A DNA stretch of 64,000 nt, from assembly GCA_903893545.1 (NCBI GenBank), contig CAITMJ010000033.1, forward strand, positions 8,069-72,068. Reading direction: 5' to 3'. The stretch comes from an uncultured Chlamydiae bacterium (lineage in GTDB: Bacteria > Chlamydiota > Chlamydiia > Chlamydiales > SM23-39). Under the pieces are notes generated by a model that worked only from the letters and a program-made list of their open reading frames with translations, was not told the origin of the DNA and ran no database searches. Position 1 is the first letter of the stretch. Every line of letters starts with the position of its first letter. The translations under genes were made by a program, and so were the position numbers. Positions 29,351-46,575 of this stretch are shown here, piece after piece.

Positions 29351-29992
29351 ATGTCCAGTTACTTAAGTTTACTTGATTACTGCACCATAAACCCACAGGT
29401 CGAGTTACGCCTCGGACTAAATGATTGGGTTAGCAAAGCGACTCTTTCTGAACGGCCTAAACGACAGATCGCTTACGCAAAAATTAGAGAGTGCTTGGAT
29501 CTGAAAATAACAATGCTAGATCTATCGGGATTGGGGTTAACCTCACTGCCCAATGAGATCAGCGCTCTTTCCAAGCTTCAAAAGCTCAACGCATCCCATA
29601 ACAATCTCGAATCTTTTCCAGATTTGTCAGAGTGCAAAAAACTCGTCTCCATCGATGTCTCACACAATGAGTTGACGGGATTTCCAGATCTTACCCGATT
29701 CTACGATCTGGAACTGCTTGATCTCTCTTATAACAAAATAGAAAAGGTTCCAGACTGTCCGGATAGCTCTTCTCTAAAATGCTTAAACCTCGTTCACAAC
29801 CAAGTCGTTTATCTGTCTGAAAATTTTGCCCATCTCAGTTCAGAGTGTGAAATCTCGATCGATAACAACCCAATCTCCATTAAGACCCTGGAAAATTTCT
29901 TGCAGCTCATTAAAGAGCCGCGTGGCCCTAAAATTTTGTGCAGCGTCATCTTAATAAAAGAGATTTTCAGGCGCGAAATCCACGCTAGATAA
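29351..29992 (+). CDS. Leucine-rich-repeat protein of the bacterial IpaH/SspH/YopM type, no ligase domain
   Basis: 213 aa. Lead-in W..ERPKRQIAYAKIRECLDLKITMLDLSGLGLTSLP, followed by five to six 22-aa LRRs (LxxLxxSHNxLxxFPDL). Confidence 0.8.
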   Translation: MSSYLSLLDYCTINPQVELRLGLNDWVSKATLSERPKRQIAYAKIRECLDLKITMLDLSGLGLTSLPNEISALSKLQKLNASHNNLESFPDLSECKKLVSIDVSHNELTGFPDLTRFYDLELLDLSYNKIEKVPDCPDSSSLKCLNLVHNQVVYLSENFAHLSSECEISIDNNPISIKTLENFLQLIKEPRGPKILCSVILIKEIFRREIHAR

Positions 29993-30066
29993 CTCGACAA
30001 AATCTCGCAAAAAAGTTATACACAATGTGATTTAAGGTAAAACCCTTTAAATAGAGGAATTTCCGA

Positions 30067-30828
30067 ATGAAGTGGTCTCTTTTTTTTCTATCGATCTTCT
30101 CTTGTGTGACTGGTGAAATCCGAGAAATCCAAACGATTGCTGAGTTTAAAAATCATTTAGATCCCGATGCGCTGGTGCTCTTCGATATAGACAATACCAT
30201 TATGGAAACTACGCAAACTCTCGGTTCAGATCAGTGGTTTACCCATCGCCGAAACGATTACGAAACTCGCGGCTATCCAGCCGTGGAAGCGCTTGAAAAT
30301 GCGCTTGCTGAATGGATGTCGATTCAAAATTTGACAAAAGTCCAAATCGTAGAGAAAGAGACCGCCGATCTTATTCGGGGATTGCAAGAAGAGGGACAAA
30401 CGCTAATGGGCCTTACCACGCGCGGCATGGGGCTAGCCCTCCGAACGATTGAGCAGCTAAAAACGCTACACGTAGATCTCACTAAGACATCTCCTTTGAA
30501 AGAAGAACAGCTTCTTCAAGGCGGGGCAGTTTTATTTCGCCAAGGGATTTTATTCACTGCGGGAACTGATAAGGGCAAAGCGTTTCTCGCCTTATTCAAA
30601 GATAAACTCCCACAGAAAGTGCTATTTATTAACGATAAAGCCTCTCACCTCAAAGAGGTGGAAAGAGCGTGCGAGCAGGCAAAGATTCCATTCATCGGCC
30701 TCCGATACGGTTTTCTCGATGAGAAGGTCAAAAGATTTTCTCATGAAATCGCCGCTATTCAATGGGAACATTTCGGCAAGCTTCTCTCCGATGAAGAAAC
30801 GGCAACGATCCTGAACTTATCTAATTAA
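30067..30828 (+). CDS. Secreted HAD-like protein (DUF2608-like)
   Basis: 253 aa, signal peptide, and HAD motif I LVLFDIDNTIMET. Confidence 0.6.
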   Translation: MKWSLFFLSIFSCVTGEIREIQTIAEFKNHLDPDALVLFDIDNTIMETTQTLGSDQWFTHRRNDYETRGYPAVEALENALAEWMSIQNLTKVQIVEKETADLIRGLQEEGQTLMGLTTRGMGLALRTIEQLKTLHVDLTKTSPLKEEQLLQGGAVLFRQGILFTAGTDKGKAFLALFKDKLPQKVLFINDKASHLKEVERACEQAKIPFIGLRYGFLDEKVKRFSHEIAAIQWEHFGKLLSDEETATILNLSN

Positions 30829-33800
30829 AACTCTCCTCCGATTCCGAGGTAGAAGAATGCATCGAAAAACAAGCTGTTCCATTTAAAGTCAGCCATGGCT
30901 TCGATCTGTACGACTTCGCAGATGGTAGTGAGGAAGTCAAATTCCAAAAGCCAACTATTGCGTCCCATTCCAAGGGCCGTTGTGCTCGCTGTTGTTCCAG
31001 AGGCACTCAAGACCTCATAATCGACAATGCGGTTATGATCGAGATATTCTCTTTGCCAGCCGAAATCAACCTCGGCGTGGAACTGCACAAGGGATTTTTC
31101 CCCTGAAAAAACAACCCTCGTTCCTAGAAATGTACTCAATGATTGAGGATCTTGCGAAGCAAACTGGAGGTCGTACATGCCCGCTCCCGACTCTTCATAT
31201 CCGCTGATGTGATCATAGATGTACTGCAGATCGAGGATAGGAATTAAGGCCAACCCTTCGGGAATCGAAGAATATGTCTTATTGGAGAAGGTGTATTCCA
31301 GATCAAATAAAAGATCGATGATGCTCTCATGCGGGGTTCCAATGGCTACTTCGCTTCCGTTAAGGCCCGTATTGCGGTGTAAATCATCCCAAGCGTAGGC
31401 GTACCCTCCTAGAAAATCGATAGCGATGTCTGGAAGTGCTTTGGGCACGATTGTGCTATACACAGTGCCGTGTAGTTTATTTACAAAGAACGCGCCGCCA
31501 TTTTCATCGATGACGCCTGTTTTACAGCGATAATCGACAGCCCCGCCAATACCTACGTAGTAAGCGCGACTGTCGTTGTCTTCAAAGGCATAGTCGCTGC
31601 CAGCAAGCGCGCCAATGGAGGAATATTTACTGCCCGGCTGCCCTTGTTTTGGATTGATCTGGCCAAATGAAGCGATCGGCCCCCCGTAGATCGTCCACGG
31701 TCTAGGTTGCTTTGCCACGGCCACTTTTTGACTGAGCATCTCCTGCCGTTTTCTAAAGGGACTCATTTCCTCATTGGCTGCGACAAGAGAATTAGGAGCT
31801 GCCGTTGGAAGACGACCGCGAAGCTGCAAACATTTGCGCATAAGTTCTGTGTTGTGCTGCCCGACGGAAGTAAATGTGAGACTTGTCGTCGATGTGCTTG
31901 CATGGGAGGGAACAGAAGGGACTAGGACCAACTGCACGGCGTTTGCTGTGTACTGAATGGAGGGAATAATCGATCCTGGAAACCCTTGCAAAGAGATGGA
32001 AGAAAACTGCGAAACAATCGAGTTTGTCGCGTAGATTAAATCCAATGTCTCTCCACTGGCGAGCGTCAGGCCAGGCAGTGCTGTGACGGTGAGCGGGCCG
32101 GTAAGGGTTGCTGTTTCTGTAGTAATCCCCCCAAAACTCGAGGTCGAGGCGATGTTTACATTGTATTGGGGAGAATTGCTTTCTGTGAATACTGTGGTTG
32201 TGATCAATGCGGCATTGGTGAGCGTTCCTCCAGAAAGAGTAAAGGGCTCTGTCGTGATTAAATAGTTGTTGGTCAACTGACCGCCGCTCATCGCAATGTT
32301 GTTGGTTGAAAGATCTCCGTTATTGACAACTGTTCCTCCGCTCATCGTCACGGTATCGCTCAAAATCAGTTCATTGTTTGTCAGAGTCCCGCCGGTCACG
32401 GTGAACGCAGCAAAAGAAGAGAGCAAGCCGGTGTTTACAATGTTTGCCGTCCCTTGAATTGTGAGGTCTCCTGATGAGGTAATAATCCAACCGCTATTGT
32501 TGACGTTATTTCCTTCGATCACTGCAATGTCAGGTTCGAGAACGCCAGCGTTGTTAAAAGTGCCAAGTCCTCCCGTATCTGTGATCGTGAGCGTATCGAG
32601 AGTTCCCAGCGAAACAGCGGAACCGAATGTCAGGGTAGCTCCAGAGGCAATGCTTATAATCCCAGAAACCGAAGAGGACGACCCTACAATGGGGACATTG
32701 ATGGTATGGCTTCCTGCTTCCACCTGAATTGTCGGAGTGGTTCCCGCAATACTGCCATCCAAGGTGAATTCTCCTCCCCCGCCTGAAAACTGTGAAATTG
32801 TATAAGAGGTCGCTGCCGTATTAAAGACCAAATTAAGCAGCGTAGGAGACTCCTCCACGCTGCCATTGGTCAACTCAATCGCTACCTCAGCAGATGCGAC
32901 AGCAGCAAATGTGGCAGTATCTCCGGCTGGCGCACTAATTCCAGGGACGCACCCGCCAGACCAATTCGAAGAATTGTCCCAAACATCGCTCGCCGATGAA
33001 ATCCAAGTTCCCGAACAGTCAGCCGATACCAACTTCACGGTCGCAGGGCTTACCATCTTTGGACTATATTGGACTGTATATCCAGCAGGAGGAGAGCTAA
33101 ATGTCCCTGTGAGGGAAGTGCCCGACAACAAGGTCAGTGGACTTGAAATGCTCCCTGTCACATTGAGCGTTCCATTTAAAACAAGCGGACCACTTGAATC
33201 GATAAACCCTGGCGCAGAGATATTTAGCGTTAATGCACCACCTGCTGCTTGCGTGTAGCTAGCCACATTGATGGTATTGGCCGCAACCACTGTTCCGTTG
33301 TTGGTCAAGGCGCCTACTTCTGTGACCGCATACGTTTGGAACGTTAACTCTGCCCCCGAAGCAACTGTGACAGCCGATCCGTTTCCAAGTACGTTTGTAG
33401 AGGCCCCTGCTTGCAGAGTGCCTCCGGAAACGGTGGTGGGTCCAGTGTAGTTACTGTTGCCGCTTAAAGTGAGCGTGCCGGTTGTCAGAGTAAGGCCGCC
33501 GCTCCCTGTGATTGCACCGGAAAAGGAGAGGCTGTCGCCATTTGCGATCGTCAAGACTGCAGAACCAGAACCTAAGTTCACATTGCCCGCGCCAGTCAAA
33601 CTGCCAATCGTCGTGTTATAGGTATCTATCGCAAGAGTCGCTCCTGAGCTGACTGTGACAGCAGATCCGACGCCAAACGCGCCACTTGTCTGTGTAGAGC
33701 CTGAAAAAACAGAGACCACGCCCGCTTGCAGGGTTCCCACACTTACAGTCGTAGCGCCCGTGTATGTGTTGGCGCCATTTAAAATTTGCGCCCCAGAGCC

Positions 33801-36800
33801 ATTCTTTGTAACGCCACCAGTCCCTGAAATCACGCCCTGAAAACTTTGCCCAGTAGAGACGCCAATGGTCAATGTATTGGCTCCCAAGAGAATTTTGGAA
33901 GAAGTGCTGCTGCTCGTCAAGCTTCCGACAGTGTTGTTATACCCATTGAGAGAGAGGATCCCTGAGCCAGACAAAACGATCGGAGACCCTGTTCCAAAAG
34001 CAGTTGTCGCTACGCCCGCTTGCAACGTCCCGCCAGAGACAGTCGTAGTCCCTGTGTATCCATTGGCATGGCTAAAAGTTTGGACTCCACTGACTAAAGT
34101 GATCCCGCCGCCACTTCCCGAAATTTGGCCAGAAAGGGTATTGCCGCCTCCAGAACTGATCGTCAAGACTCCAGATCCTAAAGTCACAGCGCCAGCGCCA
34201 GATAAGCTGCCGACTGTGTTGTTAAATCCATTGAGAGCAAGTGTTGCGCCGCTGCTGACTGTTACAGCAGAACCTACGCCAAAAGCGCCTGTCGTAGAAG
34301 TGGAGATAATGCCCGCCTGCAACGTCCCTACGCTGACTGTCGTAGCTCCCGTATACGTATTGGCCGCAGCAAGGATACATGTGTTTGATCCTATTTTTGT
34401 CAGCGCCCCTGCTCCAGAAATAATCCCCGTAGAGCTCACAGCGTTTGTCTGCGTATCGATCGTCCCTGCGGCAGTGAGTACAAGAGCGGAGGAGAGAGTC
34501 ACCGCTTCTTCTGCTTGCCAAATTCCTGCGCCGCTTCCGCTAAATGTCACTTGAACCGGCTGAGAAGAAGTGTCGATTTGCAGTGTTCCACTTTGGATGG
34601 TCAGGTTTGCAATCTCGCTGCTCAATCCTTGCAGCTCTAAAGCGCCTCCATTCAAGATGATATTTCCCCCAGGGCTTAGGAAATTCCCCGATACCGTAAT
34701 TACTCCTGTTGGAGAGATAAATGAGTTCGTCAGGGTCAGCGTCGTAGAATTCAAATTTACATTCCCAGAAATCGTAAGGAAGTCCGCCCCAGTCCCAGAC
34801 ATGATGCTCAGCGTATCTGCGACTGTAATCGGCACTGCGATCGTATGAGGGCCGTAATACACTTGAATTTGCGGAGATAGAGCCGCCGTGCCGCCCATGG
34901 TGATCGATCCGGTTCCACTGATGGTATAGTCGGTCGCAGAGCCTATGCTCAATGCGCCCAAGGTCGCTACAGAATTTAAAGTTACTGTAATCGCCCCCTG
35001 CCCCATTTCATAGCCAAAGACCGCTGTATCATCCTCGGCCCCGCCAGTATTGCCGATGCCAGGAGCGCAGCTTGTGCTCCAATTGCCAGAGGTTTCCCAC
35101 GCGCCTGCGCCAGCCACATTCCAAGTCCCTTGGCAGGCGGTCGAGGTGCCAATGTTCCAAATGGCTTGCGTCGCATTGTATTCGATTGTCGTATTCCCAA
35201 GATTTGTGACTGTCGAGAACATCCCTGTTTCAGACGAGTACTGCAAAATCACCTGATTGGAACCGGGCTGAATGCGAGGGAGAATCAACGTCCCCCCTAA
35301 AGTGGCAATCCCTGAGCCATCGATCACGCCAGTGCCTGGGAATGTCGCGAGATTGGAGACATCCAACGTCCCTGTTTGCGTATAGGTCGTCCCAGTAACT
35401 TGCTGATAGGGGATCAAAGTCCCCGAGTTTGTAATCACTCCCAGCGCATTTGTCCCGCCATCTAAAATGAGGGTAGCTCCACTATCTACTGTTGCTGCTG
35501 ATAGACTGTTATCTCCCGACAGCGTCAAAGTGCCTGCAGCTAGAGTTAAACCTCCGCCAGCGCCAGTAATCCCCCCAGAAAAAGTATTTCCATTCCCATT
35601 GCTGATCGTCAAGACCCCTGAGCCCGTTGTTACGCTGCCAGCGCCCGACAACATCCCGATTGTATTGCTAAAGCCATCGAGATCCAATGTAGCGCCTGAA
35701 GAGACTGTGATCGCAGAACCAACCCCGAACGCTCCGCTTGTCTGTGTATTCCCTGAAAAAACAGAAACCACCCCTGCTTGCAGAGTGCCAGCGGTGACGA
35801 GTGTAGGTCCAGAATAGGTATTTGTCCCTGAAAGAGTCAGTATTGCTGTTCCCGATTTGGTGAATGTATAGGCCGAGCCGCCCGCAATGGAGTTATTGGC
35901 GACGATGTTATGCCCGTTCGTATCGATTGTTCCCGAAGAGAAGAAAACGACCTTTGGGAAAGAGGTAAACGCTCCAGAGGCCTCGAAAACACCCGTGCCT
36001 CCTGAAATCACTTCAAAGAGGAGCTGTTTGGCCACAATGGTTGCAGTCGCAGTCGTATCGGTTGGAAATGCAGCTTGGTTTGCAATCAGAGTCCCATTGA
36101 GAAGCGTCGTATTTCCGTTGTATGTATTGGTCCCAGACAGTGTCAAAGTGCCCGATCCTGTCTTGGTCAATCCACCGCCGCCGATAGGAGCAGCCATTCC
36201 CGTCGTCACTAGATAAATGATATTTCCAGGAATCGCTACGTTATAGGTTTGCGTGTCGATAATTCCAGTGGTCGCCATGACGATCCCCGAAGTGGGGTTT
36301 AGCGAAATCGAACTCCCCGCAGCCTGAAGCGTTCCGCAAAACTGCTGGAAAGTAATCGATGAAGGAGCGCCTACGCTCAAGTGCGTTACATTGAGAACTC
36401 CCCCTTCTATGACGAGATCCCCCACAAGTGTGGCGGAGTTATCTGCCGTCAGAGTTAAGGTCCCCTGACCAATTTTTGCAAATGTCGTGGTCGAATCTGG
36501 CACTGTGATCGTGCCGCCGACTGTCAAATTAAAGGTGTTGGTGCTTAAAGTTCCAGTAGCTCCAGACGCAACGCTAAAATTATTCACTGGAGTGTCGTCA
36601 TCGGCAAGAACCGTAACAATGCCTCCGGTCCCCGTAAATAGATACGTGGAAGAGTCCCCCAAATATTGCGTATTGAAATAGACCCCATTTGTGAGGGTTG
36701 TCGTTCCGGTATATGTGTTAGCGCCAAAAAATGTGGGTTGAGGCTCTGGTTGGCCAGTTTCTGTAGTGCCTTCGAGAACGACAGCTCCGTTCCCTGTAAT

Positions 36801-39110
36801 CACCCCATAGAAGGGATTCGTACTGAGTCCACTTGTGATCGTAAGAACCCCGGGGCTTGTCACCTCTACGGAGGAACTAGAAGCGCCTTCGACGAGCCCT
36901 GTTAACTGTTGGATAGAGAGCGAATAGCCATTTAAATTCAGGACGCCACTTGCGCCGAGATTCACCTCCGCAGTAGATCCTAACGCAGTGGATGAGCCCA
37001 ATTGCAAAGTTCCATCGACCACAGATGTGATTCCACTAAAACCTGTGTTCGTCCCAGACAATATCAAAGTCCCAGGTCCATCTTTTTGCAACGTTCCCGT
37101 AGTATCTCCACTCGATACAGCCCCGCTGACAGTCATCGTGATAAGATCATTGATATAGAACTGCCCCACTGTTGGCACGCCGGAGACGTTGATAGAAACT
37201 GGCCCTGAAAAGGAGGTGTTCGCCCCAATGTTCACTCCACTGGTGCCCCCTTCTCTAAAATTTAGAGCCGTTATGCCTCCCAAAGAATTGGTTACAAGTG
37301 TTCCGCTCCCCACATCTCCTAAGGTGAGCGATCCCGTAAAGGAGCTAAAAGGATCTGTACTTGTCGTCGTAAGCTCGCCATTGCTAATCGTGAGTGAGCC
37401 TGACCCAGAAATCGTGCCCCCGTACGAGGTTTGCGCAGGAGATGGACCATTTCCAAAAAGAATGGTCACCGCATTTGTTCCCAGCAATAAACTAGCAGAT
37501 GAACCAGTCCCAGAAAGATACGAAATCGTACTATCATTGAGCGCTGTCGTCGACATATCCACGATCCCAGCGTTGCTGATGATCAGTGGAGGATTCCCGC
37601 TGGTTGGAAATGAGGCGCTCGTGCTAAAGACAAGAGTCCCCCCAGAGACCTGCGTTCCTCCTGTATAGCCACTTGTGCCCTGTAGAGTCAGAGTCCCCGT
37701 CCCTGTCTTAATAAGAGCTCCTCCACCTTCGATCTTCCCCGTTGTCAATACATTGTTCCCGTTCGTATCGATCCCTCCGCTAGTGGAAAGTGTGATCGTT
37801 TGGGCGATCGTAAAGGCTCCAAGAGCCTTCAACTTCCCGCCAGGAGCTGTTTGAATGGTTAAAGCGCTCCCCGAAGGAAGTCCCTGCAAGGCGATCTTAT
37901 TCCCCCCTGCAATCGTCAAGACTCCATTGTAATTGCTGCTCGTGGTCACATTGGATAAAGACCACAGATTTGATCCAAAATATATGATTGCCGCAGAGCC
38001 ATTGAGAGTCCCTGAAAACGTTCCACCGGAATAGACGTTCAAGGTTGAATTCGTAAGGGACCCGAGATTGACTGTTCCCGCTCCCGTCAAAGTGTTTGCA
38101 CTAGATGTATAGGCAGAGCTTGGATAGGTCAGCGTCCCAGAAGCCCCAACGGAGATATTCGACTGGATGCCGAAAGAGTTTGGCGCGGATCCTTGCAAGG
38201 TTCCTGCATTGACCGTCGTATCGCCGATAAACGATGCAGTGGCGCTTACATAGCTATAACTATTGTCATTGCTTAAAATAAGAGTGCCAGTGCTTCCGGC
38301 TGCCAATACAAGCGTTCCTCCAGATCCCGTTCCACTCGTAGGGGCCGTTGCCAAATATTCGATCGACCCCGACCAATTCGCTCCATCTTGCGTGTTGATC
38401 AGCGTAAACGTATTGCTATTGGCCACGACGTTCGCAACAATGGAAGCTTGATCTATGTTCAGTGTTTGATTGGCATTGAGTGTGAGAACTCCAATGCTGC
38501 TTTGGATCGTACAAAGGCTCGTCGGACAGATCGCATTGGCCGTATTGATGCTTACGCCGGCAGAGCCAAGTGTTGTTGGGCCTGTGTAGCCGTTTGACCC
38601 AGATAATACAAGAGAGCCTCCTCCGAGTAAAAGCCCTCCATCCCCCGTGATGTCCCCGGAAAAAACATCCTTATTATTGCCATAGAGAGCGAGGTTCGTC
38701 CCGCTCGGGATACTAATTGCGCATCCAAAAGTGTTGGCCGAAATAGTGGGTCCGCCTCCGCAATTAATCCACCCTCCCCCTGTCTGCACAATGAACGGAA
38801 AATCGCTGAACGTATAGCTCATTGCAGAAGAAGGTGGGACAAGAGTGATCGAAGGAGAGGTGCTCGTATTGGGGTATCCCACGGAAAGGGAATAGGGATT
38901 GGCAACATTTTGAATCACCGTGAAATTCGACGGAGATGTGTACGTAAAAAGGAGCTCATCTCCACTAGACGGCGTCGAGTTAGACTGCCAACTCAACGGA
39001 TTATTCATGTCGCCGCTGGGACTTCCCACCCAAGTAAAGGGAGCATCGCCTTTCAAATTGGCGCTGAGAAAAATGGCAATTAGGAGAGTTAATCTTTTTC
39101 TATTCATCAT
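30825..39110 (-). CDS. Giant autotransporter / Pmp-like adhesin with many PATR (autotransporter-associated beta-strand) repeats
   Basis: The maximal ORF (2766 aa) starts at 39125. MMNRKRLTLLIAIFLSA starts at 39110. Dozens of G-GTLTLSG-NTYTG-TTV--GTLQ units. C-terminal ~280 aa has alternating barrel-like sequence ending GIGGEF. Confidence 0.9.
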   Translation of the reverse strand: MMNRKRLTLLIAIFLSANLKGDAPFTWVGSPSGDMNNPLSWQSNSTPSSGDELLFTYTSPSNFTVIQNVANPYSLSVGYPNTSTSPSITLVPPSSAMSYTFSDFPFIVQTGGGWINCGGGPTISANTFGCAISIPSGTNLALYGNNKDVFSGDITGDGGLLLGGGSLVLSGSNGYTGPTTLGSAGVSINTANAICPTSLCTIQSSIGVLTLNANQTLNIDQASIVANVVANSNTFTLINTQDGANWSGSIEYLATAPTSGTGSGGTLVLAAGSTGTLILSNDNSYSYVSATASFIGDTTVNAGTLQGSAPNSFGIQSNISVGASGTLTYPSSAYTSSANTLTGAGTVNLGSLTNSTLNVYSGGTFSGTLNGSAAIIYFGSNLWSLSNVTTSSNYNGVLTIAGGNKIALQGLPSGSALTIQTAPGGKLKALGAFTIAQTITLSTSGGIDTNGNNVLTTGKIEGGGALIKTGTGTLTLQGTSGYTGGTQVSGGTLVFSTSASFPTSGNPPLIISNAGIVDMSTTALNDSTISYLSGTGSSASLLLGTNAVTILFGNGPSPAQTSYGGTISGSGSLTISNGELTTTSTDPFSSFTGSLTLGDVGSGTLVTNSLGGITALNFREGGTSGVNIGANTSFSGPVSINVSGVPTVGQFYINDLITMTVSGAVSSGDTTGTLQKDGPGTLILSGTNTGFSGITSVVDGTLQLGSSTALGSTAEVNLGASGVLNLNGYSLSIQQLTGLVEGASSSSVEVTSPGVLTITSGLSTNPFYGVITGNGAVVLEGTTETGQPEPQPTFFGANTYTGTTTLTNGVYFNTQYLGDSSTYLFTGTGGIVTVLADDDTPVNNFSVASGATGTLSTNTFNLTVGGTITVPDSTTTFAKIGQGTLTLTADNSATLVGDLVIEGGVLNVTHLSVGAPSSITFQQFCGTLQAAGSSISLNPTSGIVMATTGIIDTQTYNVAIPGNIIYLVTTGMAAPIGGGGLTKTGSGTLTLSGTNTYNGNTTLLNGTLIANQAAFPTDTTATATIVAKQLLFEVISGGTGVFEASGAFTSFPKVVFFSSGTIDTNGHNIVANNSIAGGSAYTFTKSGTAILTLSGTNTYSGPTLVTAGTLQAGVVSVFSGNTQTSGAFGVGSAITVSSGATLDLDGFSNTIGMLSGAGSVTTGSGVLTISNGNGNTFSGGITGAGGGLTLAAGTLTLSGDNSLSAATVDSGATLILDGGTNALGVITNSGTLIPYQQVTGTTYTQTGTLDVSNLATFPGTGVIDGSGIATLGGTLILPRIQPGSNQVILQYSSETGMFSTVTNLGNTTIEYNATQAIWNIGTSTACQGTWNVAGAGAWETSGNWSTSCAPGIGNTGGAEDDTAVFGYEMGQGAITVTLNSVATLGALSIGSATDYTISGTGSITMGGTAALSPQIQVYYGPHTIAVPITVADTLSIMSGTGADFLTISGNVNLNSTTLTLTNSFISPTGVITVSGNFLSPGGNIILNGGALELQGLSSEIANLTIQSGTLQIDTSSQPVQVTFSGSGAGIWQAEEAVTLSSALVLTAAGTIDTQTNAVSSTGIISGAGALTKIGSNTCILAAANTYTGATTVSVGTLQAGIISTSTTGAFGVGSAVTVSSGATLALNGFNNTVGSLSGAGAVTLGSGVLTISSGGGNTLSGQISGSGGGITLVSGVQTFSHANGYTGTTTVSGGTLQAGVATTAFGTGSPIVLSGSGILSLNGYNNTVGSLTSSSTSSKILLGANTLTIGVSTGQSFQGVISGTGGVTKNGSGAQILNGANTYTGATTVSVGTLQAGVVSVFSGSTQTSGAFGVGSAVTVSSGATLAIDTYNTTIGSLTGAGNVNLGSGSAVLTIANGDSLSFSGAITGSGGLTLTTGTLTLSGNSNYTGPTTVSGGTLQAGASTNVLGNGSAVTVASGAELTFQTYAVTEVGALTNNGTVVAANTINVASYTQAAGGALTLNISAPGFIDSSGPLVLNGTLNVTGSISSPLTLLSGTSLTGTFSSPPAGYTVQYSPKMVSPATVKLVSADCSGTWISSASDVWDNSSNWSGGCVPGISAPAGDTATFAAVASAEVAIELTNGSVEESPTLLNLVFNTAATSYTISQFSGGGGEFTLDGSIAGTTPTIQVEAGSHTINVPIVGSSSSVSGIISIASGATLTFGSAVSLGTLDTLTITDTGGLGTFNNAGVLEPDIAVIEGNNVNNSGWIITSSGDLTIQGTANIVNTGLLSSFAAFTVTGGTLTNNELILSDTVTMSGGTVVNNGDLSTNNIAMSGGQLTNNYLITTEPFTLSGGTLTNAALITTTVFTESNSPQYNVNIASTSSFGGITTETATLTGPLTVTALPGLTLASGETLDLIYATNSIVSQFSSISLQGFPGSIIPSIQYTANAVQLVLVPSVPSHASTSTTSLTFTSVGQHNTELMRKCLQLRGRLPTAAPNSLVAANEEMSPFRKRQEMLSQKVAVAKQPRPWTIYGGPIASFGQINPKQGQPGSKYSSIGALAGSDYAFEDNDSRAYYVGIGGAVDYRCKTGVIDENGGAFFVNKLHGTVYSTIVPKALPDIAIDFLGGYAYAWDDLHRNTGLNGSEVAIGTPHESIIDLLFDLEYTFSNKTYSSIPEGLALIPILDLQYIYDHISGYEESGAGMYDLQFASQDPQSLSTFLGTRVVFSGEKSLVQFHAEVDFGWQREYLDHNRIVDYEVLSASGTTASTTALGMGRNSWLLEFDFLTTICEVVQIEAMADFKWNSLFFDAFFYLGIGGEF
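33400..35835 (-). repeat. Three diverged ~0.35-kb coding modules inside the autotransporter gene
   Basis: The module NTY(T/S)G.T.V..GTLQAG...GAFGVGSA(V/I)TVSSGATL...G(S/M)L(S/T)GAG.V..GSGVLTI recurs at about 35490-35835, 34015-34375 and 33400-33790. Confidence 0.75.
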
Positions 39111-39112
39111 TT

Positions 39113-41296
39113 CTATCCCGGCCATCCTGGTGGAGAGCTCGCTACGTTAATTCCGAAATTAGGAGTTGTCACTTCAAACCAAGGCTCTAAAGGCTTGGGA
39201 AATTGGGCTTCAATTGAGGTAATGGGGACAGAAAATGTAACCCCTTCTAACAACTGTTGCGTTTGTGTCGAGTAGGCGTTCGCAGCGCTCGATGGAGTCA
39301 CAATCTGTCTTTGTAAATTGATGTTAAATACATACGTTTGGCTATTGTATTGGAACTCGACCTGGAATGGGTGAGTTGCATCGACATAGACATTGAAGTA
39401 GTCTGTATTTCCTGAAGTGGGAGGCACAATCGTATTTTGCAAAATCTGCGTGCCATCAGATGACTTATAATAATACATGAATGAAACAGTCACTCCATTG
39501 GGTGCAGGAGTAAGACTCACAGAATAGGTATACGTATCGTTGTTTATGTCCATCTCTTGAACGGGTGTGAGCGATAAACTCTCCATCACAACGACGACAT
39601 ACGGGCTATTTTGGGTAGAATCGCTTGTGTCGGTATACGGGTTTCCATTGCCATCTTGCACTGGCATCGCCATCAGTCCCGCCATCCCGAGTAAGTCATC
39701 ATAATCATACGCGTAGCCGAGGCCGAGATTGACATTATTCAACACGGCATAAGGCAAAGAAGAACTCGCAACCCCTTGCCCATCCAAATTTTGGTGCAAG
39801 GCATCGACGTACAAATTGTTCCAAGGACCGCCTGTCCAAGTCGAAGGAATCCCGGGAATCGCCTGAAAATAACTATTCTTATTCGGACTGACAGGATCTA
39901 ACTCTCCAAATCCCCCAGGAGGAACCTCGGCAGGCGCATTGAACGAAGAGGCTGCCTTAGAAACAAAGGGAGAGGTAAATGGAGCAATCACTGGCATTTG
40001 CCCAATACTAAATAAGGCACTCACAGCTTTTGATAGCTCATTGGTATAGCCGACCGCAATGGCTGGGCTAAATGGCCAAACCGATCCGCTAAGAAGCTGC
40101 TCTGTAGTGACCTCAGTGTCTCCTGTTGTCGAAGTCGGCACCCCATCGTAAAATAACTGAAGCTGTGTTGTCGGAGGGACGGGAGCTGTTCCCGAGCCGG
40201 TAAATTGCAAAAGCCCAGTCGTCCCGGAAACCGACGTCAATGTATACGTATTTGATGTCGTGTTCTCTGGAGGGGTGATCGTAAATGTGAAACTATGGGA
40301 AAGATAATAATTATATAACGCCAACATATACGACTGGCCGGTTAAAGGCCCATTGCTTGTATTCGATGTATAATCGGAAGGGAAATATTGGGCCGGATTG
40401 GTTGTCGAACTTACATTTTTAAATTGTGTTGTACTCCCTAAAGCGATGCTATTTTTCGCAGCCAATACTCGAGTGCTTCCAATGCGATTGGTTCCAGATA
40501 CAATGTAAGGATTTGCATAAAAAGGGATCTCCAAGCCCAGCCAAGCATTCTTTAAAGGGGCTGCGCTAAAAACGGTATTCATATTGTTGATTACGTTTTC
40601 CCGTGTCAGATTTGTCAACGTACCGGAATAGGGTTGCCCTAGGTTTAAAGGATCTGTCCCTGTCCCTGTATAACTATACGCAGCCAGATGCATCGGAAGG
40701 CAAAAATAATCGACCCAAGACAAGTTGATGTACAAGGTCGTGGCGACTGTCGATGTCGTATTTGCAGCCGGGTCATAATTGACCAGGCCAAACTCAAAAT
40801 CTTGATAGAGCGTATAGTAATTTACATCGTTGAGCGCTGTGACAGAGCTATCTCCAATATCCAATACCATTCTCGAAGGAGCCGGATTAAAAATTGTCGG
40901 CAAATACATCGGCTGCCCGATAGAAATATATCCTCTTGCAGAGCTACAGACCGGCAAGTAGATCACAAAGGCATCGCCTGGCTGTGGGTTTATATTCTTC
41001 GCCGGAGGCAACTGATCGAAGGTGATACTCAGCGCTGCAGAACTCGGAGTTCCATCTACATTCGGATAGACATAACTACAAATCCCCGTCGTCAAATCGG
41101 GGACCAAATAGCAAGGAAGGCCGCAGGGATCTAGCGCATGGGCAATGAAATAGAGTTGATCATCTGCCTGCCCTGTATTGTTGACGAGCACCACGGGCAC
41201 ACAATTTGGAATCGGCGCAGGAGCGATTGCGGCTGGAGCTGCCATAGCGCCTCGCATCGCCCATAAAATATACACAATATAAAGCAATCTCTTCAT
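39113..41296 (-). CDS. Secreted 727-aa protein with GH64 (beta-1,3-glucanase / thaumatin-like superfamily) signatures
   Basis: Signal peptide MKRLLYIVYILWAMRGAMA. VVLVNNTGQADDQLYF, IYLPVCSSARGYISIG, DFEFGL...INLSWVDYF and LGYAYDYDDLLG parallel GH64 landmarks recalled from memory. The CDS itself is solid; the function call is tentative. Confidence 0.55.
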   Translation of the reverse strand: MKRLLYIVYILWAMRGAMAAPAAIAPAPIPNCVPVVLVNNTGQADDQLYFIAHALDPCGLPCYLVPDLTTGICSYVYPNVDGTPSSAALSITFDQLPPAKNINPQPGDAFVIYLPVCSSARGYISIGQPMYLPTIFNPAPSRMVLDIGDSSVTALNDVNYYTLYQDFEFGLVNYDPAANTTSTVATTLYINLSWVDYFCLPMHLAAYSYTGTGTDPLNLGQPYSGTLTNLTRENVINNMNTVFSAAPLKNAWLGLEIPFYANPYIVSGTNRIGSTRVLAAKNSIALGSTTQFKNVSSTTNPAQYFPSDYTSNTSNGPLTGQSYMLALYNYYLSHSFTFTITPPENTTSNTYTLTSVSGTTGLLQFTGSGTAPVPPTTQLQLFYDGVPTSTTGDTEVTTEQLLSGSVWPFSPAIAVGYTNELSKAVSALFSIGQMPVIAPFTSPFVSKAASSFNAPAEVPPGGFGELDPVSPNKNSYFQAIPGIPSTWTGGPWNNLYVDALHQNLDGQGVASSSLPYAVLNNVNLGLGYAYDYDDLLGMAGLMAMPVQDGNGNPYTDTSDSTQNSPYVVVVMESLSLTPVQEMDINNDTYTYSVSLTPAPNGVTVSFMYYYKSSDGTQILQNTIVPPTSGNTDYFNVYVDATHPFQVEFQYNSQTYVFNINLQRQIVTPSSAANAYSTQTQQLLEGVTFSVPITSIEAQFPKPLEPWFEVTTPNFGINVASSPPGWPG

Positions 41297-41310: not shown

Positions 41311-42384
41311 CTAGAAATCCACTTGCATAGACGCATTTATCCCTTGTAAACCAAGATCTCCCTGAGAAGGCTGTCCCGCTCCAGGCGCTTGATCGATAAA
41401 GAAGTAGTTAAAGAGCTGATTTTGATCAAACCAACTCATCATTTCGTATCCTACAGAAACGGAAAGCCGTCTCTTTTGACTGTTGAAAAACATCGCCCAC
41501 TTCGCCCCTACAGCCAGTTCCATCGCATAAGCATTTTGAAAAAACGAGTCCTCTGCATCGAGTAACTCCAGATCGGCGGCGCCAGACATGACCCCTTTTT
41601 GCTCCGTGGCAAATCTTCCGAATAAAAGAGAGGCAGCTCCATTGGCATACAAGCTCCACTGCTTGTTCAGAAACCAGTTGGTTCTCACGCCGGGCTTTAG
41701 CCCCCAACCATCAAAATTATTCTGCATCGACATAGAGACGTTTTCGGCCCCGGCTCCTCCACCAGTTTGATTGAGAAAGGATCCATTGTTATAAGAGCTC
41801 TTTACCTGTTGATGAATAAACGCCCCTGTAAATGCCATGTAAGGATCGATAGAGACCCTACTTGTCGCAAACGATGATCTCGCTAGGCAAAGATCCAATG
41901 TATTGAAGTGGAGAGTCCAGCTTAAAGAGGCATCTTCTGCTACGAACGCTGCCATGCGGAAGCCAGCGGGGAACCAGGTCGCAATGAGAGTATCTGTCGC
42001 AAGAGATGAAATGGATGCAGAACTCTGCGAATGGCTTTGATAGTAGGTCCAAATCAAAGAAGCCTCCCAAGACTGCGCTTCGAACCGATACCCCGCCAAC
42101 AATCGAAATCCGGGATTCCACGAAAAATCGACATCGTGAGAAGTCCCATTGGGCAAAGGTCCCTGTCGATTGTAATGACCTATCGCTGCCGGGTAAATCT
42201 CAGGAAACGTCCATGCGTAAGAAAGACCATCTTGATCTGCCGCCATATACAAAAATTCAGCGCCGACAAATCCATATCCATAGTTTGCCGGGAACGTTGA
42301 CGGGACCTTTTCCCCTACAGCTGCAAAGATACCGACCCACGCAAGGAGACAAGCAAAGGAGAGAGAGTTTCGCAATCGGTTCAT
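41311..42384 (-). CDS. MOMP-like outer-membrane porin paralog 1
   Basis: 357 aa, signal peptide, AEFLYMAADQDGLSYAW, DFSWNPGFR, WTLHFNTLDLCLARS, terminal MQVDF. Confidence 0.75.
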   Translation of the reverse strand: MNRLRNSLSFACLLAWVGIFAAVGEKVPSTFPANYGYGFVGAEFLYMAADQDGLSYAWTFPEIYPAAIGHYNRQGPLPNGTSHDVDFSWNPGFRLLAGYRFEAQSWEASLIWTYYQSHSQSSASISSLATDTLIATWFPAGFRMAAFVAEDASLSWTLHFNTLDLCLARSSFATSRVSIDPYMAFTGAFIHQQVKSSYNNGSFLNQTGGGAGAENVSMSMQNNFDGWGLKPGVRTNWFLNKQWSLYANGAASLLFGRFATEQKGVMSGAADLELLDAEDSFFQNAYAMELAVGAKWAMFFNSQKRRLSVSVGYEMMSWFDQNQLFNYFFIDQAPGAGQPSQGDLGLQGINASMQVDF

Positions 42385-42395
42385 GATATCCTCGC

Positions 42396-43463
42396 TTAAA
42401 AATCCAATCGTATCGATAGAGAAAGGCCTTGCATTTCTAAATCTGAACGCCTTTCGTAGTTTTGCGCAAACGTCGTATTCACTTGAGAAAAGAGGTTTTG
42501 TTTAAACCAAATAATCCCTTCGTACTGAGCAGCGATCGCCACGCGCAAATTCGCTCGAGTCGGAGAAGTTTGCCACTGCAAGCCAAGCGCGCTTTGCAAT
42601 CCTATGCGCGTCCTTTGAGAAGATTTGCGCATTTTCAAGTCTCCATCTGCAAGCTCCGGCACGAGCCACTTCTGGTCGATCTCAAAAACGCCGTGGACAA
42701 TGTAACTTGCAATCGTCCCTAGCACGCTCCAAGAAGAGGATAAATTCCATTGAGGACTAGCTCGTAAAAACAGCCCTCCTGCAGAATACGAACTCTCTAA
42801 TTCCGGTCGCAGGGTTACTTCGGAAGGGATGATTGTATATTGCGTCGATGCGGCGGTTGCATTCTGTTCATTGACATCGAGGCCTTGATGAATCCACACG
42901 CCTGCGGCTCCAAAAGAAAGATCTGTCGAAAGATTTTTGCCGAGGAAATAAGAGCGAGAAAGCCCCCCATCGATCAAATTGTAGTGCAAATGCCACTTTG
43001 CAGACATCTGCGTCATATCTGCCGATTCGATAATCCCAACTCCATCATTCCACACACCGTTATTTAAGAGTCCATTGCCAGCTGCTACCTCAGTCTTTTG
43101 CGAAGCGCTCGTAAAAAACCGAGTCCAAAACGCTTTGAGTTCCCAATCATCGGGCAAATTTCTCACGCCCACTGAAATTCTCGATCCAGGGCTCCACTGA
43201 AAATCGACCTCGCGGACAGAAACGCCTTGCATGATTTGAACAGGCAAAAGAGTATTGCTTAAAAGGTCGTATTCCAATCCATCTTGCCTTGCAATCCAAA
43301 AGAGAAAGTCTCCGCGTACAATCGTGTAAATCCCCTTTACAGTGGCAGACGCTGTAGGCGTGCAAGTTCCTATGGTCCCGTTGATAAACAGTTGCCGACA
43401 TCCCGGCTCTTCTCCAAAGAGGGCGCTTCCAAATACACAGAGTAACATTCCTATTTTCTTCAT
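42396..43463 (-). CDS. MOMP-like outer-membrane porin paralog 2
   Basis: 355 aa, GDFLFWIARQDGLEYDL, DFQWSPGSR, WHLHYNLIDGGLSRS, terminal IRLDF. Confidence 0.75.
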   Translation of the reverse strand: MKKIGMLLCVFGSALFGEEPGCRQLFINGTIGTCTPTASATVKGIYTIVRGDFLFWIARQDGLEYDLLSNTLLPVQIMQGVSVREVDFQWSPGSRISVGVRNLPDDWELKAFWTRFFTSASQKTEVAAGNGLLNNGVWNDGVGIIESADMTQMSAKWHLHYNLIDGGLSRSYFLGKNLSTDLSFGAAGVWIHQGLDVNEQNATAASTQYTIIPSEVTLRPELESSYSAGGLFLRASPQWNLSSSWSVLGTIASYIVHGVFEIDQKWLVPELADGDLKMRKSSQRTRIGLQSALGLQWQTSPTRANLRVAIAAQYEGIIWFKQNLFSQVNTTFAQNYERRSDLEMQGLSLSIRLDF

Positions 43464-43472
43464 TCCATCACC

Positions 43473-44579
43473 CTAGTAGTCGAACCGCGTTGCAAAGGAA
43501 AATCCTTGGAAACCTAAATTGCCGTTGGCCGAATAAAAATATCTGCTGTTTGAAGAGTTTACAAATGTGAACCTGCGCAATTGATTGAGGTGGATCCATT
43601 CGGATAAGTCATACATCACTTGGAAGGCGAGTTTTGACTGTTTTTTCCATGCACATTCCCATTCCGCTCCCAATCCCGCCTCGTAAGCAAAACGAGTTCG
43701 ATAAGATCTCTGATCTAAGACATCGTGCACACTGTAAGACAAGCTCGAAGCGCGATCAAACACAGCAGACAGATCCTGCTGCTCTAATTTATATTTGCCA
43801 AAATTCAAAGACCCCTGAAACCTTCCCAAAATCTTCCATTGATTCGACACCAGCCAAGACATTCCAAAGGTAGAAAAAAGACCCACTGCCTGAAAGTTAT
43901 TTTTTCCCTTAAAATAAGTCGGATTATTCACAACAGTTCCTCCTGCATAATTTGCCTGAAACTGCTGATTGATCCATGCGCCCTGCACTCCCGAATGGAC
44001 GCTAAGCGCCAGTTGAGAACTCGAAAAATAGGTCCGCTTGCAAGCGAAATTTACGACGTTATAGTGAAGATTCCAAGTCGCAGATGATTGTAAAACCGGA
44101 TTGTATCCGGTCTGGTATCCGGCTCCTAACCAAATGGGGGCGATATTGGCATTGTCTAAAGAATCGATGCTCGAAGAATTATTCATCGTTCCTACGAGCT
44201 GTGTCCAGCGGGCATAGACATCCCAATTGTCAAAAGGAGTGTGGATTCCTCCCTCTACGCGAACACCTGGTTTCCAGGAACCTCCGACCTTGGTAAACTT
44301 GCCATTGTCAATGATCGGTATCGTAGTAGGGTCAGTTCCTGGAGTCGTGCTCCCAAGAGAATCTTGGCGATAGGAGTATTCCAGCCCATCTTCGTACGAG
44401 GACCAGTACAAAAATTCTGCCTGAAGAAAAACTCCCCATGCGCGGGCCCTTGGACTCGCTATTTTCCCTTGGGCACGAGAGAACACATTGTATTCTTGGA
44501 TCTGCGGCACTGGCGCTGGCGTTTCTTTTGCAAAACCAGCAAAAGTTATCCCCAGAAGAAGAAAATAGACCTTTTTCAT
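43473..44579 (-). CDS. MOMP-like outer-membrane porin paralog 3
   Basis: 368 aa, AEFLYWSSYEDGLEYSY, GGSWKPGVR, WNLHYNVVNFACKRT, terminal TRFDY. Confidence 0.75.
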   Translation of the reverse strand: MKKVYFLLLGITFAGFAKETPAPVPQIQEYNVFSRAQGKIASPRARAWGVFLQAEFLYWSSYEDGLEYSYRQDSLGSTTPGTDPTTIPIIDNGKFTKVGGSWKPGVRVEGGIHTPFDNWDVYARWTQLVGTMNNSSSIDSLDNANIAPIWLGAGYQTGYNPVLQSSATWNLHYNVVNFACKRTYFSSSQLALSVHSGVQGAWINQQFQANYAGGTVVNNPTYFKGKNNFQAVGLFSTFGMSWLVSNQWKILGRFQGSLNFGKYKLEQQDLSAVFDRASSLSYSVHDVLDQRSYRTRFAYEAGLGAEWECAWKKQSKLAFQVMYDLSEWIHLNQLRRFTFVNSSNSRYFYSANGNLGFQGFSFATRFDY

Positions 44580-44679: not shown

Positions 44680-45576
44680 TTAAAGATCCAAAATCGCAAA
44701 TTCCATATCGGATACATCGCGATTATTCGGCAGATCATCCTTTGTAGGATGGGATTGATCTGGAGAAATTTCGTATTTTTCGACGAGGCGCTTGTTGATA
44801 TAGCTAAGTTCCATCACCCGTGGAAGGCGACCTGTAGAATTACTAGTAACAAAATGGTCTAGGCAATAATTATTTCCATGAACATGAACCAAGAGAAAGT
44901 CTTTGTCCAATGTTCTCAATAGATTGAGCGCCTCGGCAATCTGGTTATCTGCAGGAAAATGAATTTCTAGAACAATTCCTGTAATATCACGAGTGTGTTG
45001 CAAAAGATCTGGCAGCGTATCGTATTCATTCCCTTCAATGTCCATTTTCACAAAAAGCTTCTTGCCTCTTATGCCCAACATTTCAACCTGCTCATCAAAA
45101 GAGGCGTTCCTTCCTTCACTCATCTGTTTATTACTTACAATGCATAAAGGGACAAAATGACATAACTCATGTGTAGTCTCTACGGGAGGGCAAGTGCCAT
45201 CGAATCCCCAAGAGGGTTTCTCATAAATGGCTGCTACCGATTCTTCAAATGAAATATCATCTGAAATCCCATATCCCATTACGGCGTCAGCCTTCTGTAT
45301 TGCAATTTCAGGCACTACATAGCCGCCATCACGATCTCTCCCAATACGCCGAAGTTGAATAGGACCTTCTGCATCATAGGCTCGATACACGCGAAGAAGC
45401 CTTACGATATCATGAGTGTCGGGTGTTTCGGAAAGGAGGGAATGAAGGAGATGGGTCTTGAGGAAGACAATCGCTGGACTAACGACTCTTTTTAGCTCCT
45501 TATCGGATACAATAAAACCATATGCGCTTCCTATAACCAGAAGCGCTATTGCGTATTGAGCCCACTTCAATTTCAT
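44680..45576 (-). CDS. FkbM-family methyltransferase with N-terminal membrane anchor
   Basis: 298 aa. KLFVKMDIEGNEYDTLPDLL...IVLEIHF matches the FkbM pattern (KiDvEGaE...E.H). Confidence 0.7.
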   Translation of the reverse strand: MKLKWAQYAIALLVIGSAYGFIVSDKELKRVVSPAIVFLKTHLLHSLLSETPDTHDIVRLLRVYRAYDAEGPIQLRRIGRDRDGGYVVPEIAIQKADAVMGYGISDDISFEESVAAIYEKPSWGFDGTCPPVETTHELCHFVPLCIVSNKQMSEGRNASFDEQVEMLGIRGKKLFVKMDIEGNEYDTLPDLLQHTRDITGIVLEIHFPADNQIAEALNLLRTLDKDFLLVHVHGNNYCLDHFVTSNSTGRLPRVMELSYINKRLVEKYEISPDQSHPTKDDLPNNRDVSDMEFAILDL

Positions 45577-45671
45577 TCCAGCTCCATTTGTTTAGACGAA
45601 ACGATATATTCTGAGAATTTTTGAGACAATTGGAATCAGAACTTTTGATTGAAAAAAACTGAAAGATCCCA

Positions 45672-45716
45672 TTATACCCAATGTAATTCAGAAATCGGAT
45701 TTTGCCAAAGTTGGCG
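45672..45716 (+). repeat. 45-bp direct repeat, copy A
   Basis: ttatacccaatgtaattcagaaatcggattttgccaaagttggcg. 40 of 45 positions match copy B. Confidence 0.85.
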
Positions 45717-45741
45717 CTGTAGAAGAACCTAAAGGAACTAG

Positions 45742-46575
45742 ATGAGATGTAGATTATTCATTCTTTACCTGCTTGCCGCGGCTATTCCCCATGCAAACTC
45801 GAAAGTGTATGATTGCTTCTTGTTTCTCAACGAAGTGGAAGTCTTGGATATCCGCCTGCATGAGATGGCTCCTGTCGTCGATAAATTTGTGATTGTAGAG
45901 GCTATCGAAACTTTCCGCGGCAATCCCAAGGAGCTCGTCTTTGCGAAATTTGCGGACAGTTTCAAAGAATTCGCCGATAAGATCATTTATATTCCGATCG
46001 ATCATCACTTTGAATCGGAATGTGCTTGGAGGCGGGAGAAGTATCATAGAAACATGATTATAAAGGGATTGGAGGAATGCGAAGAAAATGATGTCATTCT
46101 GATCTCCGATGTCGATGAAATCGTTTCGGCAAAGAGCGTTAAGGAAATCGTCGTCGCTTTGCGCGGAAAGCAAAACTTGGTCGTTGCAGTCAACCAAAAA
46201 TTACACTCTTTCTTTCTCAACAGAGTCCCGGATGGCGCCTTATGGAGAGGAACGGTCGCGACCTCTTTTAATAAGTTGAAAAGACTTACTTGCGATGGAA
46301 CGAGATTACTTCGATACGACGTGCCGGGGGTTGGCAATGGCTGGCATTTCACGAATCAAGGGGGTTTGGAAAGGTATCTGTATAAACTCGGAGCTTACTC
46401 CCATTCTGAATGGGATACACCCGAATACAAAGAAGCCAAAAGAGAAGAAAGCCCAGTTTGGAGAACCTCTTCTGTACCCGTCGATGAATCATTCCCTCTT
46501 TACATTCGAGAAAACCAATCGTACTTCGAGGAAATCGGTTTTCTCTTGAGGTGTCCGTCGATCGATCAGCAATAA
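45742..46575 (+). CDS. Glycosyltransferase family 17-like (GnT-III type)
   Basis: 277 aa. KVYDCFLFLNEVEVLDIRLHEMAPVVDKFVIVEAIETFRGNPKEL matches the GT17 N-terminal signature. DVDE acidic motif present. Confidence 0.8.
   Translation: MRCRLFILYLLAAAIPHANSKVYDCFLFLNEVEVLDIRLHEMAPVVDKFVIVEAIETFRGNPKELVFAKFADSFKEFADKIIYIPIDHHFESECAWRREKYHRNMIIKGLEECEENDVILISDVDEIVSAKSVKEIVVALRGKQNLVVAVNQKLHSFFLNRVPDGALWRGTVATSFNKLKRLTCDGTRLLRYDVPGVGNGWHFTNQGGLERYLYKLGAYSHSEWDTPEYKEAKREESPVWRTSSVPVDESFPLYIRENQSYFEEIGFLLRCPSIDQQ

Follow-up and report, generated by a model that had tools for sequence, protein, structure and literature searches.

Why should a bacterium from an obligate intracellular lineage encode an apparently secreted protein that resembles a glucan-cutting enzyme, and why should the gene for it lie hard against that of a giant autotransporter? 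The question is posed by a 64,000-nucleotide (nt) stretch of DNA from an uncultured Chlamydiae bacterium (contig CAITMJ010000033.1 of assembly GCA_903893545.1, positions 8,069 to 72,068), which we analysed as a whole and refer to as the window. An earlier reading of it, made from the letters alone and without database searches (the sequence-only reading), had singled out a minus-strand open reading frame (ORF) at 39113-41296 and proposed, from the order of its motifs, that it encodes a secreted relative of glycoside hydrolase family 64 (GH64) coupled to the autotransporter. We find that the protein is almost certainly a GH64 homologue, and we lean towards seeing in it an exported, divergent member of that family, which would constitute the glycan-acting part of an envelope or surface module with an adhesin-type partner. 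The gene is laid out as follows:

39113..41296, minus strand: GH64-like gene, 727 amino acids (aa), with signal peptide, enlarged GH64 domain and C-terminal beta-sandwich (from the ORF, homologues and structural model)
41240..41296, minus strand: predicted Sec signal peptide, residues 1-19, MKRLLYIVYILWAMRGAMA followed by AP (read from the sequence; helix 2-18 in the model)
39662..41200, minus strand: GH64-type catalytic region, residues ~33-545, with YAYDYDD (528-534) as the last conserved block (from PF16483, alignment to 9vp9 and 7vtl, and the Foldseek match to 3gd0)
40793..40795, minus strand: codon of Glu168, predicted counterpart of the GH64 catalytic acid Glu154 (aligned to the Glu of solved GH64 chains)
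40709..40711, minus strand: codon of Asp196, predicted to correspond to Asp170, the catalytic base of GH64 (falls on the VD motif of solved GH64 chains in the alignment)
39116..39661, minus strand: C-terminal beta-sandwich, residues ~546-727, ~180 aa, ending in SSPPGWPG (strands 542-718; predicted local distance difference test, pLDDT, mostly >90)

All motifs quoted by the sequence-only reading could be located residue by residue in this ORF: VVLVNNTGQADDQLYF at residues 35-50, IYLPVCSSARGYISIG at 112-127, DFEFGL at 166-171 (including Glu168), INLSWVDYF at 190-198 (including Asp196) and LGYAYDYDDLLG at 526-537. In an alignment of 46 homologues they occupy invariant or near-invariant columns. 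The signal peptide it had claimed is likewise supported, by inspection of the N-terminus and by the model helix. No lipobox is present in MKRLLYIVYILWAMRGAMA|AP, and the protein looks like a Sec substrate with a cleavable signal. Together with two cysteines that are nearly invariant among the 46 homologues (Cys62 and Cys73), this signal favours an extracytoplasmic location.

Membership of GH64 is supported by both profile and fold. When the first 230 aa are scanned alone, the Pfam profile Glyco_hydro_64 (PF16483) matches residues 33-211 with 39.9 bits (E 4.1e-10), against a curated gathering cut-off of 27 bits, the matched region corresponding to profile positions 3-156 of 370. A six-frame search of the genome retrieves the gene with the same profile at 38.3 bits, and 44 of the 46 homologues match it as well (best E 1.9e-24). 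A search of the PDB with the single sequence returned nothing and a family profile was needed: the profile built from the 46 homologues finds the solved GH64 protein 9vp9 among PDB chains at E 3.4e-6 and, more weakly, 7vtk and 7vtl. The alignment to 9vp9 and 7vtl spans the strand carrying Arg121, Glu168 and Asp196 and takes in the YDYDD block in a second stretch.

The structural evidence points the same way. From the 46-sequence alignment AlphaFold2 produced a model (mean pLDDT 86.6, predicted template-modelling score 0.89) that agrees with the two-domain GH64 fold, in which a beta-barrel domain and a mixed alpha/beta domain form a cleft. Its best Foldseek match in the PDB is the GH64 structure 3gd0 (E 3e-17, target-normalised template-modelling score, TMt, 0.77), and the six top matches (3gd0, 5h4e, 7vtl, 7vtk, 5h9x, 5h9y) are all GH64. 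The sequence-only reading had named a Pfam search and a structural comparison as checks on its proposal, and both thus came out in its favour. Thaumatin-like proteins appear only after these, with E between 1e-3 and 8e-3 and TMt 0.33-0.38, and neither full-length nor fragment scans produced a Pfam match to the thaumatin family. With Foldseek matches so far behind GH64 and no Pfam thaumatin match, we rejected a thaumatin-like (PR-5) identity. Characterised GH64 members are inverting endo-beta-1,3-glucanases.

Does the protein retain the equipment of an enzyme? For the laminaripentaose-producing glucanase (LPHase) of Streptomyces matensis, PMC4758615, citing Wu et al. (2009, J Biol Chem), gives Glu154 as catalytic acid and Asp170 as catalytic base, and names Thr156, Asn158, Trp163 and Thr167 as sugar-binding residues. 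In the family-profile alignment to 9vp9 and 7vtl, Glu168 and Asp196 of the window protein fall on the conserved Glu and Asp, so that, going by this alignment and the overall fold match, the two are the predicted counterparts of the GH64 catalytic pair. The claim of the sequence-only reading to that effect holds as far as the alignment goes, with the qualification that the spacing between the two residues is longer, 28 residues as opposed to 16-17 in the solved GH64 proteins aligned. The longer insert that it had noted between them is thus real: the loop is 12 residues longer, is modelled with low confidence at residues 176-181 and stands in the region of Trp163. Two and four residues after Glu154, LPHase has Thr156 and Asn158; the residues two and four places after Glu168 are Gly170 and Val172. 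The position of Thr167 is taken by Ser193, and it is Thr or Ser in all 42 sequences of a more diverse alignment, which reaches down to ~25% identity.

None of the 46 close homologues departs from Glu168 or Asp196. Across the 42 diverse relatives Glu168 and Trp252 are always kept, Arg121 is kept in 39 and Asp196 in 37. Two of the five Asp exceptions are doubtful homologues; the other three are related sequences that have Ser for this Asp, Leu for Arg121 and Glu for Asp534, all three changes occurring together. The coordinated loss of three residues in one branch suggests that they act as one site, and that catalysis still constrains the remaining members, the window protein among them. The members of the changed branch themselves (L052:3350-4960, L054:5855-7396 and L057:3003-4676) are probably inactive, binding-only derivatives, to judge by these substitutions; a small outer-membrane protein (OMP) of a kind described below is still adjacent to them.

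The window protein is considerably larger than a canonical GH64 enzyme. Its GH64-type region extends over ~510 residues compared with ~360 in solved enzymes, an excess of ~150 aa, and 551 columns were needed to align it with the 362 residues of 3gd0 in Foldseek. The additional C-terminal region announced by the sequence-only reading is present, only its size has to be corrected, from ~160 to ~180 aa (residues ~546-727). No significant match to this domain was found in Pfam (using the fragment and 21 relatives), in the PDB profile search or in the Foldseek results for the whole model, and we accordingly rejected the idea that it is a known carbohydrate-binding module (CBM) or a member of another known family. 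Since the beta-sandwich can be aligned in every subfamily, it appears from the alignments to be an old part of the family design. What differs between subfamilies is the very end. A tail S-x-P-P-x-W-P-G (SSPPGWPG in the window, 39116-39139) closes only the proteins of the group paired with an autotransporter (clade-1), and relatives paired with the small OMP end in ...LP(N/D)T(N)PFP or in plain Pro. A role for the tail in docking or sorting, specific to the partner, is conceivable.

The partner in the window is the gene immediately downstream:

30825..39125, minus strand: giant autotransporter, ~2761-2766 aa (from PATR and TIGR02601 repeats, C-terminal orthology and the junction sequence)

The protein has the hallmarks of a classical (type Va) autotransporter, namely a signal-peptide-like N-terminus, a PATR passenger (PF12951 in eight stretches, E 2.3e-40; TIGR02601 in nine) and a C-terminal beta-domain with an aromatic end, the last residues being GIGGEF. 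PF03797 was not reported for the window autotransporter itself at E <= 0.01; its C-terminal 330 aa share 31-40% identity with orthologues in which this domain is present. The stop codon of the GH64-like gene (TAG, 39115-39113) is followed two nt later by ATG ATG at 39110, which opens the signal-peptide-like MMNRKRLTLLIAIFLSA. Although the longest reading of the autotransporter ORF starts at 39125 and overlaps the GH64-like gene by 13 nt, the ATG at 39110 is the likely start, and the two proteins are probably co-translated.

The coupling to the autotransporter, which the sequence-only reading had proposed, is therefore real in the window, with a junction of 2 nt, and the pairing is kept in other genomes. 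We surveyed 400 sampled Chlamydiota genomes, one of which went unscored in two of three phylum-wide searches, and defined clade-1 as the 18 best-scoring loci; further subfamilies were delimited as score bands against the clade-1 profile. Thirteen clade-1 loci are not cut by a contig end and can be assessed. In 12 of these a homologous giant PATR autotransporter lies directly downstream, and in the thirteenth the GH64-like gene comes just after the end of an autotransporter gene. Other clade-1 neighbours vary: one genome has ribosomal protein genes and a two-partner secretion pair, a second has type III secretion genes and a third has enolase and RsgA. Co-occurrence follows the same rule: an orthologue of the autotransporter beta-domain scoring >300 bits is found in 15 genomes, and all 15 carry a clade-1 GH64-like gene. 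The window genome has a single GH64-like copy. Four other species of its genus lack the gene in the clade-1 profile search, and three of them also lack the autotransporter, the fourth having a fragment only.

Individual loci add some detail. In G205 the GH64-like gene (C9:35420-37390) contains three in-frame TAG codons and the autotransporter beta-domain (C9:42556-43229) is split into two ORFs, which looks like joint decay of both partners. A single in-frame TAG is present in the GH64-like gene of G267 and in the small OMP of G060, a genome that carries the GH64-like module. The P0010 genome (L005:6324-9845) has a second autotransporter, of 1173 aa and with PF03797, directly upstream, so that its GH64-like gene is flanked on both sides, and in G339 (L047) an autotransporter likewise ends a short way upstream.

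More distant subfamilies have no autotransporter nearby. They are accompanied instead by a small OMP of ~230 mature residues, whose copies are 36-48% identical to each other (one closer pair reaches 69%). All 10 subfamily-2 genes and 14 of 16 subfamily-3 genes (24/26 combined) have it within 1 kb, none of the 18 clade-1 genes does, and 23 of 45 weaker GH64-like matches have it within 1.3 kb. Approached from the other side, a broader profile reveals a GH64-like neighbour at 7 of 14 small-OMP loci that had seemed orphaned, with two further weak cases. The small OMP is modelled (pLDDT 86.9) as a barrel of about ten strands, the closest structure being the meningococcal adhesin OpcA (2vdf, E 2.9e-9, TMt 0.75), with a porin of the Legionella Dot/Icm machine and omptins also near. 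We considered whether it might be a stand-alone autotransporter beta-domain, a split autotransporter in effect, and rejected this: hhalign gives a probability of 1.4% for its relation to the autotransporter barrel, and the ten-stranded model is OpcA/omptin-like. A search of the window genome found no small-OMP orthologue.

How the two partners are distributed over the family is best seen on a maximum-likelihood tree of 49 members, in which the autotransporter-paired proteins form one clade (SH-aLRT 99), with an OMP-paired clade as its sister and further clades around it, so that a single change of partner defines the window's clade. The tree, which is midpoint-rooted and does not include a canonical GH64 outgroup, would suggest the OMP as the earlier partner and the autotransporter as the later one.

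This is a small family, restricted to chlamydia-like genomes. It comprises 48 homologue clusters at 90% identity and 44 representatives among 1.84 billion proteins, and the named sources of relatives are Parachlamydiales, Simkania, Candidatus Neptunichlamydia, Chlamydiae/Chlamydiales and one metagenome-assembled genome (MAG) labelled 'Verrucomicrobia'. In the phylum survey the clade-1 profile matches at E <= 1e-5 in 82 of 400 genomes and 47 of 212 genera, all in the window's order; with so narrow a profile, this means that at least about a fifth of the chlamydial genomes in the sample encode a GH64-derived protein with an intact catalytic pair. Some orthologues bear the automatic database name 'beta-1,3-glucanase family protein', so that membership of GH64 is already implied and is not new. 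We found no paper on GH64 or glucanases in Chlamydiae or Simkania, and as far as we have seen the enlarged architecture with its own C-terminal domain, its spread through the phylum and the partner rule have not been described. Annotation pipelines may leave the window protein unnamed while naming its orthologues, a full-length scan being blind to it and its first 230 aa scoring above the cut-off.

What, then, might this protein do? In the account that we favour, it would be exported by Sec and, because it keeps the Glu/Asp pair, would most likely still hydrolyse a glycan; family membership would suggest a beta-1,3-glucan-like polymer as the substrate, and the protein would work with its adhesin-type outer-membrane partner at the host interface. 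Export, activity, substrate, cooperation with the autotransporter and surface location are all things that we infer, and they do not carry the same weight. A functional tie to the autotransporter strikes us as likely, retention of hydrolytic activity as reasonably probable given the conserved residues, and beta-1,3-glucan as the substrate as no more than a tentative suggestion. The interaction with host or cyst-wall glycans that the sequence-only reading had suggested would be conjectural.

Several observations weigh against this account. A full-length hmmscan of the 727-aa protein returns no Pfam family at E <= 1, and NCBIfam likewise yields nothing. The Pfam miss is a filter artefact of the search, because the N-terminal 230 aa alone and the six-frame search both match PF16483; the direct match, for its part, covers only the N-terminal 40% of the profile. 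The predicted Sec signal would account for transfer to the periplasm only, not for crossing the outer membrane, for which the type II secretion system present in chlamydiae is one candidate route. Equivalents of Thr156, Asn158 and Trp163 are not recognisably kept in the window protein, and for this reason its substrate specificity may differ from that of the Streptomyces enzyme. To our knowledge, beta-1,3-glucan is neither made nor met by Chlamydiae. The partner barrels are, judging from their sequences, unrelated, hence they offer no single shared interface, and genes kept side by side may simply share their regulation as envelope genes, without their products acting together.

Imagine, for example, that the protein bound host or environmental glycans without cutting them, as a lectin-like component of the envelope or the adhesin. 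Thaumatin-like proteins, which share the fold (Foldseek E ~1e-3), often act by binding. Moreover, the subsite residues Thr156, Asn158 and Trp163 of LPHase (PMC4758615) are not recognisably kept in our alignment, and a branch in which the Asp and two further cleft residues are gone is nevertheless maintained beside a small OMP, so that catalysis would appear dispensable for some members. If binding were the only function of the window protein, however, it would be hard to explain why Glu168 and Asp196 are invariant in 46/46 close homologues and why all 42 distant relatives have the Glu and 37 of them the Asp; nor would the match to GH64 enzymes be expected to exceed that to thaumatin-like proteins so clearly (TMt 0.77 versus 0.38). 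Such conservation across the family, of the Glu without exception and of the Asp with few, makes a non-enzymatic role, which the sequence-only reading had left open, less likely for the window protein, and we consider a lectin-like binder unlikely. A second scenario dispenses with host glycans altogether: the GH64 fold might be a mere scaffold for a periplasmic accessory factor in the folding, insertion or maturation of the partner barrel. Such a factor would fit with a gene that always lies beside that of an outer-membrane beta-barrel and is tightly coupled to it in the window, with a Sec signal that alone predicts the periplasm, and with a tail (S.PP.WPG) peculiar to the autotransporter-paired clade. 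Yet the partner barrels are unrelated, so that a specific chaperone function would have to be re-invented, and a chaperone role leaves both the glycosidase pair and the many aromatic residues of the cleft unexplained. We know of no such accessory protein for classical autotransporters and regard the scenario as improbable.

Equally improbable, in our view, is that the adjacency has no functional meaning and that co-regulated genes for envelope and secreted proteins simply cluster for use over the chlamydial developmental cycle. Clustering is common among chlamydial envelope genes, and the clusters studied here also contain Legionella_OMP-type porins: the window has three, L049 and L040 have one apiece. 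If this were all, we would not expect the pairing to persist where the other flanking genes differ completely, or co-occurrence with the autotransporter orthologue in 15 of 15 genomes, or a type of partner that tracks the GH64-like phylogeny with a single change. The exported-hydrolase account can also be sharpened into a more daring form, which we judge unlikely as it stands: a two-component surface module in which an outer-membrane barrel, OpcA-like or autotransporter, and a dedicated GH64-derived glycanase, held by the barrel or working next to it, would bind and cut a host or prey glycan, with the C-terminal beta-sandwich and the S.PP.WPG tail serving for docking. If true, such a bind-and-cut pair would act in attachment, entry or release, by analogy with the receptor-binding and receptor-destroying pairs of some viruses.

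How does the window protein compare with known systems? The closest is 3gd0, the best Foldseek match, which has the same fold and is a secreted protein, as the window protein is predicted to be. The two share the Glu...Asp pair within E-[FY]-x-[LF] and N-x-[ST]-x-V-D, an Arg on the strand R-x-Y-[FI]-S and, towards the C-terminus, the block Y-x-[FY]-D-D. They are only 15% identical, however, and differ in Glu-Asp spacing (16 in 3gd0, 28 in the window protein), in the size of the catalytic region (~150 residues larger in the window protein) and in the extra C-terminal beta-sandwich of ~180 aa. They also differ in setting: 3gd0 comes from a free-living saprophyte, whereas the window protein belongs to an obligate intracellular lineage and has an outer-membrane partner gene. 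The other solved proteins, 9vp9 (a 'GH64 domain-containing protein'), 7vtk/7vtl, 5h4e and 5h9x/5h9y, have 373-412 residues each and are all shorter than the window protein. Where solved GH64 proteins have accessory modules, these are known CBMs such as CBM56 (PMC7915573). The Paenibacillus barengoltzii GH64 protein (5h9x/5h9y) has a CBM56, in contrast to the window protein, whose C-terminal domain matches no CBM. Thaumatin-like proteins (Mal d 2, 3zs3) are more remote, having the fold of the superfamily that unites them with GH64 and an acidic cleft, with ~220 aa, TMt 0.38 and no sequence match.

Orthologues from Simkania sp., Candidatus Neptunichlamydia and Chlamydiae MAGs (P0025, P0044 and P0031), which bear the automatic name 'beta-1,3-glucanase family protein', on the other hand, are 34-39% identical to the window protein over 94-100% of its length, have the same architecture and the same autotransporter downstream, and differ in nothing essential. 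With regard to gene order, the window recalls Aah/AIDA-I and TibC/TibA of E. coli, in which the gene of a sugar-modifying enzyme is directly upstream of, and co-transcribed with, that of a large autotransporter adhesin. The similarity ends with the gene order, there being no homology: Aah and TibC are cytoplasmic heptosyltransferases that act before export, whereas the window protein has a hydrolase fold behind a signal peptide and would act after export.

Chlamydiae possess very few glycoside hydrolases. Proteins derived from GH64 with an intact catalytic pair would point to an unrecognised glycan at the interface between chlamydia and host, and their pairing with adhesin-type OMPs amounts to a testable hypothesis on how environmental chlamydiae engage amoebae, other protists, arthropods or marine animals. 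Should the protein be inactive or purely periplasmic, the finding would shrink to a divergent, automatically annotated GH64 homologue.

Upstream, the GH64-like gene is preceded by three tandem porin genes:

41311-42384, minus strand: porin gene of the Legionella_OMP/major outer-membrane protein-like type (PF05150)
42396-43463, minus strand: porin gene of the same type (PF05150)
43473-44579, minus strand: porin gene of the same type (PF05150)

The matches of the three genes to PF05150 have E-values of 2.3e-31, 1.1e-13 and 3e-21. With gaps of 9, 11 and 14 nt, these genes lie directly upstream of the GH64-like gene, and five genes in all, the autotransporter included, run head to tail on one strand; the three porins and the GH64-like gene probably share a transcription unit. 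This operon structure is proposed from spacing alone because a scan for promoter and terminator signals over 30-46 kb gave counts no higher than in shuffled sequence. A comparable array is found at L040:8136-15083, where a GH64-like gene is followed by a small OpcA-like OMP, a Legionella_OMP-type porin (E 2.5e-17) and two OMP-like ORFs with aromatic ends; the cluster resembles the window's succession of porins, GH64-like gene and autotransporter.

As to the wider surroundings, a search of PLSDB gave no match that would indicate plasmid origin. A divergent pair upstream of the porins (44680-46575) consists of an FkbM-type methyltransferase gene (weak Pfam match, E 1.8e-4) and one for a glycosyltransferase of family 17 (GT17; PF04724, E 3.8e-29). 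GT17 is mainly eukaryotic. The latter protein has a signal- or anchor-like N-terminus, and its gene is a second glycan-related function beside the GH64-like module. Downstream of the autotransporter, on the opposite strand, 29351-30828 encodes a leucine-rich-repeat protein of 213 aa (LRR_4/LRR_8) and a DUF2608 protein (E 1.2e-57) with a weak resemblance to HAD acid phosphatases.

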